Of a stretch of 48,979 nt of DNA, positions 22,092-42,330 are shown in pieces (within the stretch, counting starts at the first letter, position 1; every line of letters begins with the position of its first letter). This DNA is from a virus (Duplodnaviria > Heunggongvirae > Uroviricota > Caudoviricetes), in IMG/VR virus record IMGVR_UViG_2529293142_000029, positions 1 through 48,979 of that record; one strand, written 5' to 3'. The position numbers and the translations under genes are program-made. The notes below the pieces were generated by a model. The model worked only from the letters and a program-made list of their open reading frames with translations. It did no database searches and was not told the origin of the DNA.

Positions 22092-23547
22092 ATTCAGATT
22101 CCATCATGTGGTATGGGCTGGCCTTATCCGACTGGCGCATGCTTCTTATTGCATCAAGATCGAACACGCCAGCTTCGGCATAGTTCTTGTCAGCCTCAGA
22201 CTGATGTTTCATGATCTCGGCTTTCTCTGCTTCTGTAAGCTCATACAGAGGCAGGAACTCAAAATCAATGTCAGGGTCAATCTCGCCAAATTCGTTTAAC
22301 TGGATCACATCCAGTACTGTTTTCAGTGGTACTCTGAACAGATTCTCCTGCATGGCGTGTATTGAGTCATAGAAGACGCGGATTTCGCCATCAGATGAAG
22401 CGTTTAGCCCGTTAGGAGTGATGCCAAGGAGCTTAACCAGAGGAATGCTTGATACCGATGCCATTTGTTCCTGCGCTTGCGCCTGAAGAGCATCAACTCC
22501 GGACAGACTTGTCACAAACTGGAAGAATTCTTCTCCATCCTTATCAATAAGGAACATTCCGCGATTGTCGCGAACCTTATTGAATAGCTCGGCACGCATA
22601 AACAGGTTTGGGTCTGCAATTCCAGACAAGGCATTCTGCATGTTCGTCTTCAGCCCGTGGACCACAAACGAATGAACCAGATCGCTAACGCTGTCACGTG
22701 TTCTCAGCCAGTTTTGCACATATGGCTCTGCCATCTGACTCAGCGACAAGCCGCCGAAGTTGTACGCCGCTTTGAGAATGTCTGGCACCTGGCGAGAAAT
22801 CATTGTCAACATACGGCTGGCGTGAACAGTACGCCCCATGACATACCATTCAGATGGATTGAAGAAATCAGGACTGAGAGGGTTATCAGCGTTATACACA
22901 CCAGGGTATGTCCACATGGCCTCGATAACGCGGAAACCATTCAGGCTTCCTTTGGTAATCTTGCGCGGGCTGATATAGAGCTTCTTATCCAGTTCGTCGG
23001 GAACCAGCCAGGCTGAGTTACCGCTTGGCGTCTTCACGTCGATATAAATCTGTCCACGCCCGAAGTAACCGTCATGTTCCGCCGCCTCGCGAAACTTCTC
23101 TCGCACTCTGAAACGCTTTAATGCGTCGTCAAGCTGGCGAATCTTATCGGCCTTGTCGTCACCATCGTCTTTACCTACATGCTTCAGCTCAATCCATTTT
23201 CGCGTCATCTCTTCTGCTATCGTGCCAGTAATCTTGCGATACTCCGGCAACTGAGCAAGTTGAGACAGATATGGGTAGCCAGGGAATCCACCGTAGCCAT
23301 ATGCGGTGATGTTTGCTGAGTTAAGGTAACTGTACGGCGTGGAGTCCATCGCCAGAGCTGACTCCCCAATATGTTCAGGAATAACGCCTGGCGGGGGTAC
23401 GTATCTCTCAATTCTACGCAATGCCTCGCCTTCATTTTTAATTCGCTCCTGTTCGTTAATAATCGCAAGAACATTCGCCAGAGACATTGGCTGTTTCGCC
23501 TCTTCTTTCTGAGGCTCAGATTTTTTCTTTCTCAAAAAATTAAACAC
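22012..23547 (-). CDS. Portal protein
   Basis: 511 aa with acidic C-terminus, directly downstream of terminase large subunit. Confidence 0.55.
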
Positions 23548-25066
23548 TATGCGAGCCTCAAAAGGTCTTCAGATATACGTAACGGACCATTGCCATTTTT
23601 CATCTCATCGATGGCATCCATCATCGGATCAAGCTGGTCGTCGTGCGTATTGAAATCAGGATTAATGGCTTCCATCTCAACGAGGAAGTCGTTGATGAAT
23701 GGTGCGCTGCTGGGCAACTTGATGTAACCGGACTCGATATAACCCTGTACGTCCATCAGTCGTGTGTACTTATCCTTATCGCGCTGAATTGCTTTGATGG
23801 GGCATATCGCTTTTTTACGGATGTTCTGTATCAGGCCTGTGCCAGATGACTTGTCCTCTATCGCCATGTGGCGAAGCGGCCCATTCTTCAGAGTTTTGCA
23901 CTTTTCCCAGAATGCAACAGCACGGCGTTGTAATTCATCGGCCTCCCATTTACCGCGAATCATATCGATCAGATAGATGTACCCGTCAGTACCAAGCCCC
24001 CAGTGCTCGAATACTGAGAAGTCGTTGACCTCTTTTGTTTTCTGTGCGGTGTCTCCATAGACGGCACGCCATTGCATGGGAGGGAGTACCGAATATTCAC
24101 CAAACCATTCAGACTTAATAAGCCCCCGCCTTTGGCGGTTGGTCGTTGCTGATAAAGGGCATTCCATACAAGAGAACCGCGCTGTTTGCACTTCTCTACG
24201 AACTCTCTCGGCATGCGCTCAGGAAACAGAATTTCACCGGGATTGCGCAGTCGATACACATTACCGTTGAGTTCATGAATCTCTTCCTTTTCAGCCTCCA
24301 TTGGGAAGCTAACTACGCGCCAGCGTTCCCCGCCCTCTTCAGCTAGTTTTAATAACTGTCCGGCGAGATCGTTTTGATGCCAGCGTGTCAGGATGATGAC
24401 AATTCCGTTTATCTTCGGGTCAACACGAGTGAAGAATGTCGTGTCATACCAGTCCATCACCGCTTCCTGGTAAGTTGGAGACGATGCGGTTTTGTAATCT
24501 TTCGCGGGGTCATCAATAACCCCAATGTTCATACCCTGCCCGGTGATGCCACCGTTAACACCAGCAGAACGATATGAGCCGCCGTGTAGTTCGCCTTTGG
24601 CATCAACTGGTTCCCATAGCTCGGTTTTGTTGATGCCTCCAGCCAAACTGCGTCCTGAGGGTATTTTCACGTCAGGGAAAACATCAGCGTACTTATCAGA
24701 GGTGATAATGCGTTTAACGTCACGGCTCATTCGGTCTGACAGGTCAGAAGAATATGAGCACGAGATAATGTTCCATGATGGATGCTGTCCTAACACATAC
24801 GCTGGGAAGCGGCGAGAGCACAACTCACTCTTTCCTGAGCGCGGAGGGGCAAACACCATTAGCCTGGGCATGTTTCCGGCTTTAACTTCATCCAGAAAGT
24901 GATCCAGCTCAGCACAAAGCAGCTCGTTAAACCAACCTGTTTCGTATTGCGGATTAGTGTACAAAGTGAAATCGAGAAGGTTTTTTCTTGCTGAGCGGAT
25001 AGCCAGCTCTTTGTGCAACTCATAAATCTGAGCGTTTCGATTCAAGCTGATTGGAGCGCCTGCCAT
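23547..25066 (-). CDS. Terminase large subunit; frame break at plus-strand C5 run 24123-24127
   Basis: Walker A (APPRSGKS) in N-part; N-part ...[11 protein letters not shown] and C-part [10 protein letters not shown]... join if the G run is G6. Confidence 0.8.
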
Positions 25067-25610
25067 TACCAAGCTCCTTCAGTTTCTCTTCAAGTAACTC
25101 TTCTGACATATCGGCATAACGAACAGGCCCGCCATCAGCGCCAGTTATTTCTGTAGATGTTTGCTCTTTAAACGCCTGAACAGAAACATGCTTACCAAGA
25201 AGTTCGAGATTTTTGACCTTATCAGGCCATTTGATTTTCTTCAGGAGAGCAGCGCTATCAGCAGATGCCATCTCGACGACATCCATACCCGATAGAGTCG
25301 TTCTCCATACTTTGGGCCAGTCTTTAATCGGCTTCAGTTCGCCATTGGCAAGCAGAATGTCAAGCACGTCCATCTGATCGATTTCAGTCAGCCGTCGCAA
25401 TACATAGGCAGCGTCTATACCTACCTCTTCATTGCGTTCAGCCTTTAGCTCAGCAATGCGATCTGCTATGTCAGGTTTTGACAGGTTCTCGCTACCAGTG
25501 GCGCGAGCAGTTTTCTCGCTGTAACCCGCCCTGATAGCTGCCTGAGTGGCGTTTAAATCTTTCAGGTACTCACGGGCAAACAGCTCTTGTTTGTCGGTGA
25601 GCTTTGCCAT
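25020..25610 (-). CDS. Terminase small subunit
   Basis: N-terminal LTDKQELFAREYL...NATQAAIRAGYSEKTA is the classic small-terminase HTH motif. Confidence 0.75.
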   Translation of the reverse strand: MAKLTDKQELFAREYLKDLNATQAAIRAGYSEKTARATGSENLSKPDIADRIAELKAERNEEVGIDAAYVLRRLTEIDQMDVLDILLANGELKPIKDWPKVWRTTLSGMDVVEMASADSAALLKKIKWPDKVKNLELLGKHVSVQAFKEQTSTEITGADGGPVRYADMSEELLEEKLKELGNGRRSNQLESKRSDL

Positions 25611-31423: not shown

Positions 31424-31586
31424 AATGACGCCCTCGAGTGGTTTCTAAACTATCACCACCGTCAGGTTCCTAATCATCGGGTGGTGAGACGTACAGGGTT
31501 AGGAACTACCGGGAAACCAACCGGCGAGCTTTTCAGCTCCCCCATACGCCCCACCATAATTCAGATGTGCGCGTGCATACGACAAT

Positions 31587-31608
31587 AAAAAACACGCTCG
31601 CGGCGTGT
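31587..31608 (-). terminator. Candidate rho-independent terminator
   Basis: Plus-strand A6 then ACACGC-TCG-GCGTGT hairpin, giving hairpin plus U6 on the minus strand. Confidence 0.4.
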
Positions 31609-31700
31609 GTCTGTCGCGGTCTCTATCCGGGGTTCCTAATCCCGACGCCAGATTTTGCTGGCGCGTGAAGAATATAGCCCCAAATAAATCATCGCGTCAA

Positions 31701-37640: not shown

Positions 37641-38298
<658 letters not shown>

Positions 38299-38423: not shown

Positions 38424-38453
38424 TTGACTCAATAAAGTACAAATCGTACTATT
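38424..38453 (+). promoter_or_regulatory. pL-like promoter with overlapping operator palindrome
   Basis: -35 TTGACT (38424-38429), -10 TACTAT (38448-38453); palindrome AGTACaaatcGTACT at 38436-38450; downstream CATCAGCAGGACG matches the recalled lambda pL transcript start region. Confidence 0.5.
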
Positions 38454-38491: not shown

Positions 38492-38522
38492 CGCTCTTAA
38501 AAATTAAGCCCTGAAGAAGGGC
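38492..38522 (+). promoter_or_regulatory. nutL site (boxA CGCTCTTAA, boxB GCCCTGAAGAAGGGC)
   Basis: Read directly; matches recalled lambda nutL. Confidence 0.8.
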
Positions 38523-38632: not shown

Positions 38633-38959
38633 ATGGATGCACAAACACGCCGCCGCGAACGTCGCGCAGAGAAACAGGCTCAATGGAAAGCAGCAAATCC
38701 CCTGTTGGTTGGGGTAAGCGCAAAACCAGTTAACCGCCCTATTCTCTCGCTGAATCGCAAACCGAAATCACGAGTAGAAAGCGCACTGAATCCGATAGAC
38801 CTTACGGTGCTGGCTGAATACCACGAACAGATTGAAAGCAACCTGCAACGTATTGAGCGCAAGAATCAGCGAACATGGTACAGCAAGCCACGCAGTGAAA
38901 TGGGTGTGACTTGTGTTGGTCGCCAGAAAATGAAATTAGGCAGCAAACCACTTATTTGA
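38633..38959 (+). CDS. N: Antitermination protein N
   Basis: MDAQTRRRERRAEKQAQWKAANPLLVGVSAKPVNRPILSLNRKPKSRVESALNPIDLTVLAEYH... matches recalled lambda N; AGGAG SD upstream of ATG 38633. Confidence 0.9.
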   Translation: MDAQTRRRERRAEKQAQWKAANPLLVGVSAKPVNRPILSLNRKPKSRVESALNPIDLTVLAEYHEQIESNLQRIERKNQRTWYSKPRSEMGVTCVGRQKMKLGSKPLI

Positions 38960-38970
38960 GAGGAATTAAT

Positions 38971-39594
38971 ATGTCATCAATCCGCTTAACTACGACAATA
39001 AAAGAAGTAATAGCACGCAACGCTTTAATTAAGTCCGGGGTATTCACTGAACTTGAAGAAGTAACAAAGTTAAAGAACCAGCTTGCACTTGATGCCAGAG
39101 TTATTGCGTTTGGCGGGAAAAAGAAAACCGAAGAAGTGGACCAGCTGGCATCAAAGTTAATGGCTGCAAGTGAGGAACTTCAAAAGCTGGGATGTTCATT
39201 TTACTCATGCGATGTCAGTTCAAGTTCGATTTATCTGACTGTATCTGGAAGAAGGGTTGGCTGGCATTCATACGGAAAAGACGGCAACGGTGAAGATATA
39301 TTGCTCCCTACCCCCGACAAAGATAAATGCATGTTTGACGCAGAACACAAAATAACAAAAAGGTTTGATGAAATCTGCGCATTGCAACAAAAACTTGAAG
39401 CCAGGAAAAAGGATATCGAATCAAATGTATGGGCTGCTTTGAACTCAGTCACAACAGTTAGGCGACTTATTGAGGTCTGGCCTGAAAGCAAAGAGTTGCT
39501 ACCAAAAGAAGCAGATAAAGCAAGTGCAGCACTTCCTGCTTTACGGGTAGAAGATTTGAATAAGATGATTGGACTTCCTTCCGAGGCCGCATAG
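38971..39594 (+). CDS. Hypothetical protein (207 aa) immediately downstream of N
   Basis: GAGG SD plus ATG at 38971; AT-rich codon usage; no recognised motif. Confidence 0.5.
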   Translation: MSSIRLTTTIKEVIARNALIKSGVFTELEEVTKLKNQLALDARVIAFGGKKKTEEVDQLASKLMAASEELQKLGCSFYSCDVSSSSIYLTVSGRRVGWHSYGKDGNGEDILLPTPDKDKCMFDAEHKITKRFDEICALQQKLEARKKDIESNVWAALNSVTTVRRLIEVWPESKELLPKEADKASAALPALRVEDLNKMIGLPSEAA

Positions 39595-39609
39595 TCGGCC
39601 TTTATTTTT
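39585..39609 (+). terminator. Rho-independent terminator overlapping the stop of the 207-aa gene
   Basis: GGCCG-CATAGT-CGGCC hairpin followed by TTTATTTTT. Confidence 0.6.
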
Positions 39610-39715
39610 GGAATAAACAACAGAATAAACGTAAGCGTAAACCGACCGCCGTATGTAGCCATTAGACAAGAATTGGTAACTTAGACGCCCATCTGACACA
39701 GACGGACATCTAAGT

Positions 39716-40135
39716 ATGGAATTACAGGACTGGCGAAAAGAACCTCGTAAAAAGTATTCGAATGAATTCAAACTTCGTATGGTTGAACTGGCATCACAAC
39801 CCGGTGCTTGTGTGGCTCAGATTGCACGAGAAAATGGCGTCAATGATAATGTTATTTTCAAATGGCTCAGACTCTGGCAAAACGAAGGGCGTATATCACG
39901 GCGTCTTCCGGTGACAACCACTTCTGACGCAGGCCTTGAATTATTACCTGTAGAGATAACGCCTGATGAGCCGAAAGAACCGATGGCTGCTCTTACTCCG
40001 CCCTTATCCACTCAGACTACTGTCAGTGCCAGCTCCTGCAAGGTGGAGTTCCGTCACGGTAACATGACGCTGGAAAATCCTTCACCAGAGCTGCTCACTG
40101 TATTGATTCGTGAACTGACCGGGAGGGGAAGATGA
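39716..40135 (+). CDS. tnpA: IS66-family accessory protein TnpA
   Basis: 139 aa; N-terminal KKYSNEFKLRMVELA... HTH typical of IS66 orf1. Confidence 0.8.
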   Translation: MELQDWRKEPRKKYSNEFKLRMVELASQPGACVAQIARENGVNDNVIFKWLRLWQNEGRISRRLPVTTTSDAGLELLPVEITPDEPKEPMAALTPPLSTQTTVSASSCKVEFRHGNMTLENPSPELLTVLIRELTGRGR

Positions 40136-40482
40136 TCTCACTCCCATCCGGTACCCGTATCTGGCTCGTTGCCGGGATAACCGATATGCGTAAGTCTTTC
40201 AACGGGCTGGGTGAACAGGTACAGCATGTGTTAAATGTTAATCCCTTCTCCGGTCACCTGTTTATCTTCCGTGGCCGACGGGGTGACACCGTTAAAATTC
40301 TTTGGGCTGATGCTGATGGTCTGTGCCTGTTCACCAAACGTCTGGAGGAAGGCCAGTTTATCTGGCCTGCGGTGCGTGACGGTAAGGTATCCATTACCCG
40401 CTCGCAACTGGCAATGCTCCTCGATAAGCTGGACTGGCGTCAGCCAAAAACATCCCGCCTTAACGCCCTGACAATGTTGTAA
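40132..40482 (+). CDS. tnpB: IS66-family accessory protein TnpB
   Basis: 116 aa; IWLVAGITDMRKSFNGL...HLFIFRGRRGD typical of IS66 orf2; ATGA overlap with tnpA. Confidence 0.8.
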   Translation: MISLPSGTRIWLVAGITDMRKSFNGLGEQVQHVLNVNPFSGHLFIFRGRRGDTVKILWADADGLCLFTKRLEEGQFIWPAVRDGKVSITRSQLAMLLDKLDWRQPKTSRLNALTML

Positions 40483-40512
40483 AAAACGCCTGGCCGCATT
40501 ATAAAAACGGCC

Positions 40513-42104
40513 ATGAGTCAGAAATACCTCATTCGCATTGCAGAACTGGAAAGCCAGCTCCGTCAGAAAGACCAGCAACTGAGTCTGGTTGAAGAGACGG
40601 CGGCCTTCCTGCGCTCTGCACTGGCACGTGCCGAAGAAAAGATCGAAGAGGATGAACGGGAAATAGAACATCTGCGGGCTCAGATAGAAAAACTGCGCCG
40701 GATGCTGTTCGGTACCCGTTCTGAAAAACTGCGTCGTGAAGTTGAACAGGCTGAGGCCCTGCTGAAACAACGCGAACAGGACAGCGATCGTTGCAGTGGG
40801 CGGGAAGACGATCCACAGGTTCCCCGCCAGTTGCGACAGTCGCGCCATCGTCGTCCGTTACCGGCACACCTTCCCCGTGAAATACACCGTCTGGAGTCTG
40901 AAGAAAGCTGTTGCCCGGAGTGTGGCGGTGAGCTGGATTATCTGGGGGAAGTCAGTGCAGAACAACTGGAACTGGTGAGCAGCGCCCTGAAAGTGATCCG
41001 CACAGAACGGGTAAAAAAGCCTGTACAAAATGTGACTGCATCGTTGAAGCACCGGCGCCGTCCCGCCCGATAGAGCGTGGTATCGCGGGCCCCGGATTAC
41101 TTGCCCGCGTGTTAACGGGAAAATACTGCGAACACCTGCCACTGTATCGTCAGAGTGAAATCTTTGCCCGACAGGGTGTCGAACTGAGCCGTGCATTACT
41201 CTCCAACTGGGTTGACGCGTGCTGCCAGTTAATGACACCGCTGAATGATGCCCTGTACCGTTATGTGATGAATACCCGCAAGCTTCACACTGACGACACA
41301 CCGGTAAAGGTACTGGCACCGGGCCTGAAAAAGACGAAAACAGGGCGCATCTGGACGTATGTCCGGGATGATCGCAATGCGGGTTCGTCATCTCCTCCGG
41401 CGGTCTGGTTCGCGTACTCACCGAACCGGCAGGGGAAACACCCGGAGCAACACCTCCGCCCCTTCCGGGGTATCCTGCAGGCGGATGCGTTCACAGGTTA
41501 TGACAGGCTGTTCAGTGCAGAACGTGAAGGTGGTGCGCTGACAGAAGTTGCGTGCTGGGCCCATGCCCGGAGAAAAATCCACGATGTATACATCAGCAGC
41601 AAAAGTGCGACGGCAGAAGAAGCCCTGAAGCGAATCAGTGAACTGTACGCCATCGAGGATGAAATACGGGGATTACCAGAGTCAGAGCGTCTTGCAGTCA
41701 GACAGCAGCGAAGCAAAGCGTTACTGACGTCGCTGCATGAATGGATGGTGGAGAAGAATGGTACGCTGTCGAAAAAATCCAGACTGGGCGAAGCGTTCAG
41801 CTATGTACTGAATCAGTGGGACGCCCTCTGTTATTACAGTGATGACGGACTGGCGGAGACGGACAATAACACAGCGGAAAGAGCGCTTCGTGCAGTCTGT
41901 CTTGGAAAGAAAAATTACGTGTTCTTCGGTAGCGATCACGGCGGCGAGCGTGGTGCACTGCTGTACGGGCTGATCGGCACCTGCCGTCTGAACGGTATCG
42001 ATCCGGAAGCGTATCTGCGCCATATTCTGAGCGTACTGCCGGAATGGCCCTCCAACCGTGTTGACGAACTCCTGCCATGGAACGTAGTTCTCACCAATAA
42101 ATAA
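40513..42104 (+). CDS. tnpC: IS66-family transposase TnpC; frame break at A6 run 41015-41020
   Basis: Track ORFs 40513-41073 and 41109-42104 join (…RVKKACTKCDCIVEAPAPSRPIERGIAGPGLLARVLTGKYCEH…) if the run is A7. Confidence 0.8.
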
Positions 42105-42330
42105 GCGTCAATACGGTGCTCCGTTGACGCTTACGAATAAACACAGCACTGTGTATTCATTCCAACGAGTGAATACACGGAGCAATGTCGCTCGTAACCA
42201 AACAGGAGCCGACTTGTTCTGATTATTGGAAATCTTCTTTGCCCTCCAGTGTGAGGGCCTTTTTATATGCATACCAATAACGCTTCACTCGAGGCGTTTT
42301 CGTTATGTGTAAATAAATAAGGAGCACACC

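Follow-up and report, generated by a model that had tools for sequence, protein, structure and literature searches.

A recent IS66-family insertion in the early-left operon of a lambdoid prophage, with a one-base contraction in its transposase gene

Does an insertion sequence (IS) that lies in the early-left operon of a lambdoid prophage cut the downstream genes cIII and kil off from their promoter, and is its own transposase gene broken? We address these questions in IMG/VR virus record IMGVR_UViG_2529293142_000029 (Caudoviricetes; 48,979 nucleotides (nt), all of which were analyzed and are called the window here), where an earlier note had described an IS66-family element upstream of cIII. 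The best explanation, and in our view a highly probable one, is the recent insertion of a known IS66-family element that is read through from pL and carries a one-base contraction in tnpC. On this reading, a copy of an element known from Escherichia coli and E. albertii would have jumped not long ago between two genes of the pL (early-left) operon. Its target, 5'-GAATAAAC-3', lies about 190 nt upstream of cIII, and the terminator of an Nmad5-family gene ends 14 nt before it.

Boundaries, target duplication and empty site

The element and its ends were delimited as follows.

39631 to 42134, + strand: IS66-family insertion sequence of 2,504 bp, identical bar a 1-nt deletion to annotated copies of 2,505 bp
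39623 to 39630, unstranded: left copy of the 8-bp target-site duplication, GAATAAAC, single in empty-site relatives
42135 to 42142, unstranded: right copy of the 8-bp target-site duplication, GAATAAAC, single in empty-site relatives
39631 to 39654, + strand: left terminal inverted repeat, GTAAGCGTAAACCGACCGCCGTAT, from repeat and motif searches
42111 to 42134, − strand: right terminal inverted repeat, GTAAGCGTCAACGGAGCACCGTAT on the − strand, from repeat, motif and folding analyses

Both copies of GAATAAAC are perfect and directly abut the element, and the probability that two given flanking 8-mers would be identical by chance is about 1.5 × 10−5. To look for the empty site, the left and right flanks were fused around a single 8-mer; in 74 E. 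coli genomes one place covered at least 80% of this query. In E. coli CE10 and IGC_RcoliRes_1.1 the sequence runs uninterrupted (...TTTTTGGCATAAACAACAGAATAAACACTGCACTG...) with a single GAATAAAC exactly at the position of the element, which identifies the 8-mer as a target-site duplication. Both the intact 8-bp duplication that the earlier note had reported and the empty site that it had proposed to look for in related prophages are thus present. The insertion event duplicated its target, the usual behavior of IS66-family elements; this, like the sequence identity, the empty site, the gene content and the context, is a direct observation. No gene was disrupted, the target being intergenic. A third copy of GAATAAAC, at 39611–39618, is native, reads GCATAAAC in relatives and is unrelated to the insertion; the target 8-mer occurs natively twice, 12 nt apart, as GGAATAAACAACAGAATAAAC (39611–39630).

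The terminal inverted repeats are 24 nt long and, as had been claimed, imperfect, with 20 of 24 positions matching by eye and each starting with GTAAGCGT; the repeat search returned them as 25 nt at 84%, with one flanking base included. Within the window, GTAAGCGTMAAC ends occur only at the two termini of the element, and the ends are the same in three further copies from other genomes. As RNA, the right inverted repeat forms a hairpin without a U tract.

Gene content and family membership

The element contains tnpA, tnpB and tnpC only, without passenger genes.

39716 to 40135, + strand: tnpA, encoding a 139-amino-acid accessory protein with HTH_Tnp_1 (Pfam; PGAP annotation of the identical copy)
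40132 to 40482, + strand: tnpB, encoding a 116-amino-acid IS66 Orf2-like accessory protein (Pfam TnpB_IS66, 125 bits; NCBIfam NF033819, IS66_TnpB)
40513 to 41073, + strand: 5' part of tnpC, encoding the leucine-zipper region and the first half of the zinc finger, with a premature stop past the frame break (open reading frames, Pfam)
41019 to 42104, + strand: 3' part of tnpC in the −1 frame, encoding the remaining zinc finger, DDE_Tnp_IS66 and the C-terminal element (open reading frames, Pfam)

tnpA and tnpB overlap by ATGA at 40132–40135, and tnpC starts at 40513, 30 nt past the tnpB stop. Pfam assigned LZ_Tnp_IS66 and zf-IS66 to the first TnpC piece and DDE_Tnp_IS66 (313 bits) and DDE_Tnp_IS66_C to the second, while the intact 530-amino-acid TnpC of the twin copy described below matched the NCBIfam model transpos_IS66 (NF033517) at 449 bits against a cut-off of 180. 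IS66-family elements end in imperfect inverted repeats of about 20–30 bp that begin 5'-GTAAGCG. The ends of the window element begin in this way, its size falls within the range applied here for the family (about 2.4–2.7 kb, no passenger genes), and its TnpC domains, its three-gene layout with the ATGA overlap and its 8-bp duplication also agree. An IS66 target duplication of 8 bp is given in the passage of PMC6778807 that cites Machida et al. 1984. In every respect examined the element is a member of the IS66 family, the assignment being made at family level; the tnpA-tnpB-tnpC identification in the earlier note is confirmed by the Pfam and NCBIfam domains and by the gene layout.

Distribution of the element and age of the insertion

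The element is widespread. At least 80% of it was covered at one place in 3,332 E. coli records, in 693 of which the best match was at least 99% identical, and it also occurs on plasmids of E. coli, E. albertii, Klebsiella, Shigella and others, with a 100% match on the E. albertii plasmid NZ_CP117563.1. Alignment to the 2,505-bp element of E. coli MINF_2E (plasmid 3) showed a single missing A in the window copy and not one substitution. PGAP annotates this twin with tnpA, tnpB and a continuous 530-amino-acid tnpC labeled "IS66 family transposase". Base for base, apart from the one A, the element is therefore already known.

The left junction had no match in 5,426 complete E. coli genomes, 50,697 phage records, the GTDB species representatives or IMG/VR. 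Because the duplication is perfect, the element has no substitutions relative to other copies and its junction is absent from these collections, the evidence supports an insertion that is recent and private, in line with the relatively recent transposition that had been suggested from the sequence alone.

A contracted homopolymer in tnpC

The only difference from the MINF_2E twin lies in a run of A.

41013 to 41019, + strand: run of six A followed by G, read A_AAA_AAG in the tnpC frame, where intact copies have A7

Intact copies read GTA AAA AAA GCC TGT (V K K A C) here, whereas the window reads GTA AAA AAG CCT, with the A6 run at 41013–41018. The tnpC frame is lost after 41019 and meets a stop at 41073, and the −1 frame continues to 42104. 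The variants were counted with an 81-nt A6 query around the run, for which a best match of at least 99% corresponds to the exact A6 form. This form was found in 9 of 3,394 records, six of them listed at 100%, while 3,351 of the 3,394 matched at 95–99%, and those listed have one gap in an 82-nt span, which corresponds to A7. About 99.8% of the records with the segment have A7 and an intact, continuous TnpC of 530 amino acids. In other genomes, annotation treats both of the A6 copies that were examined as pseudogenes, frameshifted and truncated, and the exact truncated product of 186 amino acids was found in no record of the assembly collection. Since A7 is the norm and the examined A6 copies are annotated as pseudogenes, a split tnpC is not a normal feature of the element.

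At 1–1155 of one further contig, L006 (CAAGKF010000217.1), there is an E. coli-type IS66 tnpC with 92% identity to that of the window, its A run likewise being six long. The contig is binned in a "Lachnospiraceae bacterium" metagenome-assembled genome and is probably a mis-binned enterobacterial one.

The break would thus be a one-base contraction from A7 to A6, arising either as a homopolymer error in the assembly or as a very recent inactivating mutation. Other genes in the window bear on this choice. The cI-like repressor gene is split into a helix-turn-helix part (37647–37937) and an S24 peptidase part (37924–38298, + strand), and when compared with the intact gene of E. coli GPEC1405, which is 99% identical, it shows two one-base contractions 21 nt apart, from A6 to A5 near 37880 and from T6 to T5 near 37901. 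Two more genes differ in this way from E. coli TW10590: near 24122 a C6 run reduced to C5 splits terL (23547–25072, − strand), and near 2467 a T6 run reduced to T5 shortens an acyltransferase gene (1600–2478, + strand). We tallied all homopolymer runs in segments aligned at 97% identity or more.

Runs of 4 nt: 248 compared, 0 shorter in the window, 0 longer
Runs of 5 nt: 93 compared, 1 shorter in the window, 0 longer
Runs of at least 6 nt: 48 compared, 5 shorter in the window, 1 longer

Contractions rise with run length and go almost wholly in one direction. This pattern suggests the usual signature of homopolymer under-calling by a sequencing platform, though a decaying prophage could look similar. 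Given the other contractions in the window, the tnpC break may therefore be an assembly error.

A real, recent inactivation by replication slippage from A7 to A6, which would leave a non-autonomous pseudo-element in a decaying prophage without cI and terL, is a serious possibility, if one that falls somewhat short of our preference. Mutations are frequent in homopolymer runs, a few other genomes do have A6 copies, both of those examined being annotated as frameshifted pseudogenes, and the 92%-identical relative on contig L006 likewise has A6. Set against this, nothing but the deletion distinguishes these 2,504 nt from intact copies, and the same window has contractions in cI (the two 21 nt apart), terL and the acyltransferase gene. 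The tally of five contractions and one expansion among runs of at least 6 nt, with none among 248 runs of 4 nt, also speaks against mutation, and a lysogen without a working cI would be hard to maintain. On balance we consider an assembly artefact somewhat likelier than a mutation. The transposase break that the earlier note placed at an A6 run is present in the window sequence, where intact copies have A7, but it may not be a property of the transposase gene itself. If the A6 run is real, this copy would be essentially non-autonomous, and identical intact copies could supply transposase in trans.

Transcription from pL across the element

Early-left transcription runs along the + strand of the window, and the element points in the direction of pL. 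Its surroundings are as follows.

38424 to 38452, + strand: pL-like promoter (promoter scan)
38492 to 38522, + strand: nutL, with boxA CGCTCTTA at 38492–38499 and boxB GCCCTGAAGAAGGGC at 38508–38522, downstream of the pL-like promoter (motif search)
38633 to 38959, + strand: antiterminator N gene (Pfam N36, 92 bits)
38971 to 39594, + strand: gene for a 207-amino-acid Nmad5-family protein, upstream of the insertion (Pfam PF18757, 230 bits; PGAP names in relatives)
39583 to 39609, + strand: intrinsic terminator-like hairpin with T run, ending 14 nt before the duplicated target (terminator scan)
42241 to 42308, + strand: two native terminator-like sites, starting at 42241 and 42279, in the interval between the insertion and cIII (terminator scan; also in empty-site relatives)
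42318 to 42376, + strand: cIII thermoregulator RNA element (Rfam RF01804, 88.5 bits)
42331 to 42471, + strand: cIII (Pfam Lambda_CIII)
42464 to 42577, + strand: kil (Pfam Lambda_Kil)

Past kil, the annotation of relatives shows genes for an ATPase and an anti-RecBCD protein, among others. The nutL sequence matches that of lambda. The Pfam assignments and the terminator scan agree with the earlier placement of the insertion between the terminator of the 207-amino-acid gene and cIII. Nmad5 stands for "nucleotide modification associated domain 5", and this gene occupies the place of the lambda ral/sieB/ea10 region. Directly to the right of the insertion point, a very stable native hairpin with a 14-bp stem and no U tract (42148–42181, + strand) is also found in the empty-site relatives; the segment 42090–42200, which comprises this hairpin and that of the right inverted repeat, folds with z = −7.2. 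No outward or hybrid promoter was found at the right end of the element in the promoter scan, and TTGACG in the right inverted repeat has, by eye, no suitably spaced −10 hexamer.

It had been proposed that, because of the element, transcription driven by pL and N probably no longer reaches cIII, kil and the recombination genes, which would cripple the prophage for its delayed-early-left functions. We consider such a polar effect improbable. The insertion does add 2.5 kb of foreign sequence between N and cIII, and the terminator scan reported one weak terminator-like site inside the element, on the + strand at 40277–40293. The element nevertheless points the same way as pL and holds no convincing intrinsic terminator, and nutL and N are intact. 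The path from N to cIII already crosses three native intrinsic terminator-like sites (39583, 42241 and 42279), which are present in the empty-site relatives too; because of these, only N-modified polymerase would arrive at cIII even in a prophage lacking the element. Adhya, Gottesman and de Crombrugghe reportedly found in 1974 that the polarity of IS insertions is suppressed by N. Polymerase in the N complex is highly processive and resists both intrinsic and Rho-dependent termination (reviewed in PMC12360218). The proposed separation thus finds no support in the co-orientation, the intact N and nutL, the native terminators or the interior of the element.

After induction, N-modified RNA polymerase should read through the extra 2.5 kb to cIII, kil and the recombination genes, an expectation that follows from the co-orientation with pL, the lack of a convincing intrinsic terminator inside the element and the intact N and nutL. 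The two native terminators upstream of cIII should stop unmodified transcripts leaving the element and so keep kil silent in the lysogen. We infer both read-through of the element and insulation by the native terminators; what the insertion more likely does is lengthen the transcript by about 2.5 kb and cause a short delay. Two considerations count against this expectation. Read-through is deduced from the known action of N rather than from expression of the locus, and a genuine frame break would leave about 1 kb of tnpC RNA untranslated. Rho, for which untranslated RNA is a ready substrate, could enter there, and termination at this place would matter if N modification were incomplete.

Frameshifting at the A run

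The A6G run reads A_AAA_AAG in the zero frame, which raises the question of ribosomal frameshifting. This heptamer is among the most slippery −1 heptamers in E. coli (PMC4066793), and a −1 slip on it would recreate the wild-type V-K-K-A-C exactly. In the published assay, however, it gave only 0.29% frameshifting when no stimulator was present (supplement of PMC4066793), and no stable structure lies 3' of it here, the segment 41020–41110 folding at −25.3 kcal/mol (z = +0.95 against shuffled sequences). A leaky −1 rescue of TnpC is possible, at a very small level. If the A6 run is real, the change from A_AAA_AAA to A_AAA_AAG with about 0.3% slippage might yield a copy that is strongly attenuated but not dead, and slippage between A7 and A6 might act as a reversible switch of IS66 transposase, an idea that we hold to be quite unlikely.

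It is less likely still, to the point of being rejected here, that the split tnpC is no defect and instead a programmed −1 frameshift like that of IS3-family orfA-orfB, since for all the slipperiness of its heptamer about 99.8% of records carry A7 and a single 530-amino-acid reading frame, so that the heptamer is not conserved across copies, the downstream structure is missing and the examined A6 copies are annotated as frameshifted, truncated pseudogenes. The element accordingly lacks both marks of the IS3-type arrangement, namely a conserved slippery heptamer with two overlapping open reading frames as the normal state and a stimulatory structure downstream of the heptamer.

Prophage setting and implications

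The first letters of the window are the start codon of an intS-type integrase gene (1–1158, + strand), the TW10590 counterpart of which adjoins a tRNA-Arg gene, and it ends in host DNA, in a gene for a LacY-family (cscB-like) permease (47732–48979, − strand). Because of this intS-type start and cscB-like host end, the window is a whole chromosomal prophage region, from the argW-side intS to the cscB-like host gene, and not a free phage genome. In the nin/late-regulatory region, 31477–31677 (− strand) matched the Rfam families for C4 antisense RNA (67 bits), its a1/b1 target element (46.9 bits) and isrK (69.4 bits); it looks like a P1/P7-type antisense-controlled module that probably controls an antirepressor.

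The insertion is real but ordinary, with an unremarkable site, ends and gene content, and IS insertions in prophages are commonplace. It carries little weight beyond annotation, being one private and recent IS66-family insertion, together with a correction to the expectation that cIII, kil and the recombination genes are silenced. Its practical value is as a warning about data quality. Frame breaks in this window may be sequencing artefacts, and with contractions in tnpC, cI, terL and the acyltransferase gene, pseudogene or frame-break calls anywhere in it need caution before they are interpreted biologically.

Comparison with known systems

Classical IS insertions are known in operons of lambda that are read from pL or pR, among them IS2 in lambda r32 and the IS in gal read from pL. 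Those cases and the present one are alike in placing an IS within an early operon under N antitermination, where N-modified polymerase is expected to override polarity. They differ in that the classical cases were tested by experiment, whereas read-through is a prediction here, and the present element is co-oriented and intergenic.

With IS66 of Agrobacterium tumefaciens, the prototype of the family, the window element shares the tnpC transposase and the 8-bp duplication, as given for IS66 in the citing passage mentioned above, while that element is distant in sequence, lies on Ti/At plasmids and has a different host. Nearer relatives are the neighboring IS66-like elements of E. coli that PGAP names ISEc23, ISEc43 and ISEc47, with ISEc8 also among the names given. 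Family and layout are common to the first three and the window element; a TnpC fragment of the ISEc23 family is 94% identical in protein sequence over its C-terminal 156 amino acids, and ISEc43 and ISEc47 copies have the 81-nt segment around the A run in common with it. They differ in naming, as the TnpC of the window element receives only a generic family name from PGAP. Closest of all is the 2,505-bp element of E. coli MINF_2E (plasmid 3, NZ_LR890653.1, 67079–69583; also chromosomal; TnpC WP_006703274.1). This copy and that on NZ_CP117563.1 differ from the window copy in insertion site and in having the A7 run of tnpC complete, and otherwise match it in every base, in inverted repeats and in tnpA-tnpB-tnpC layout.

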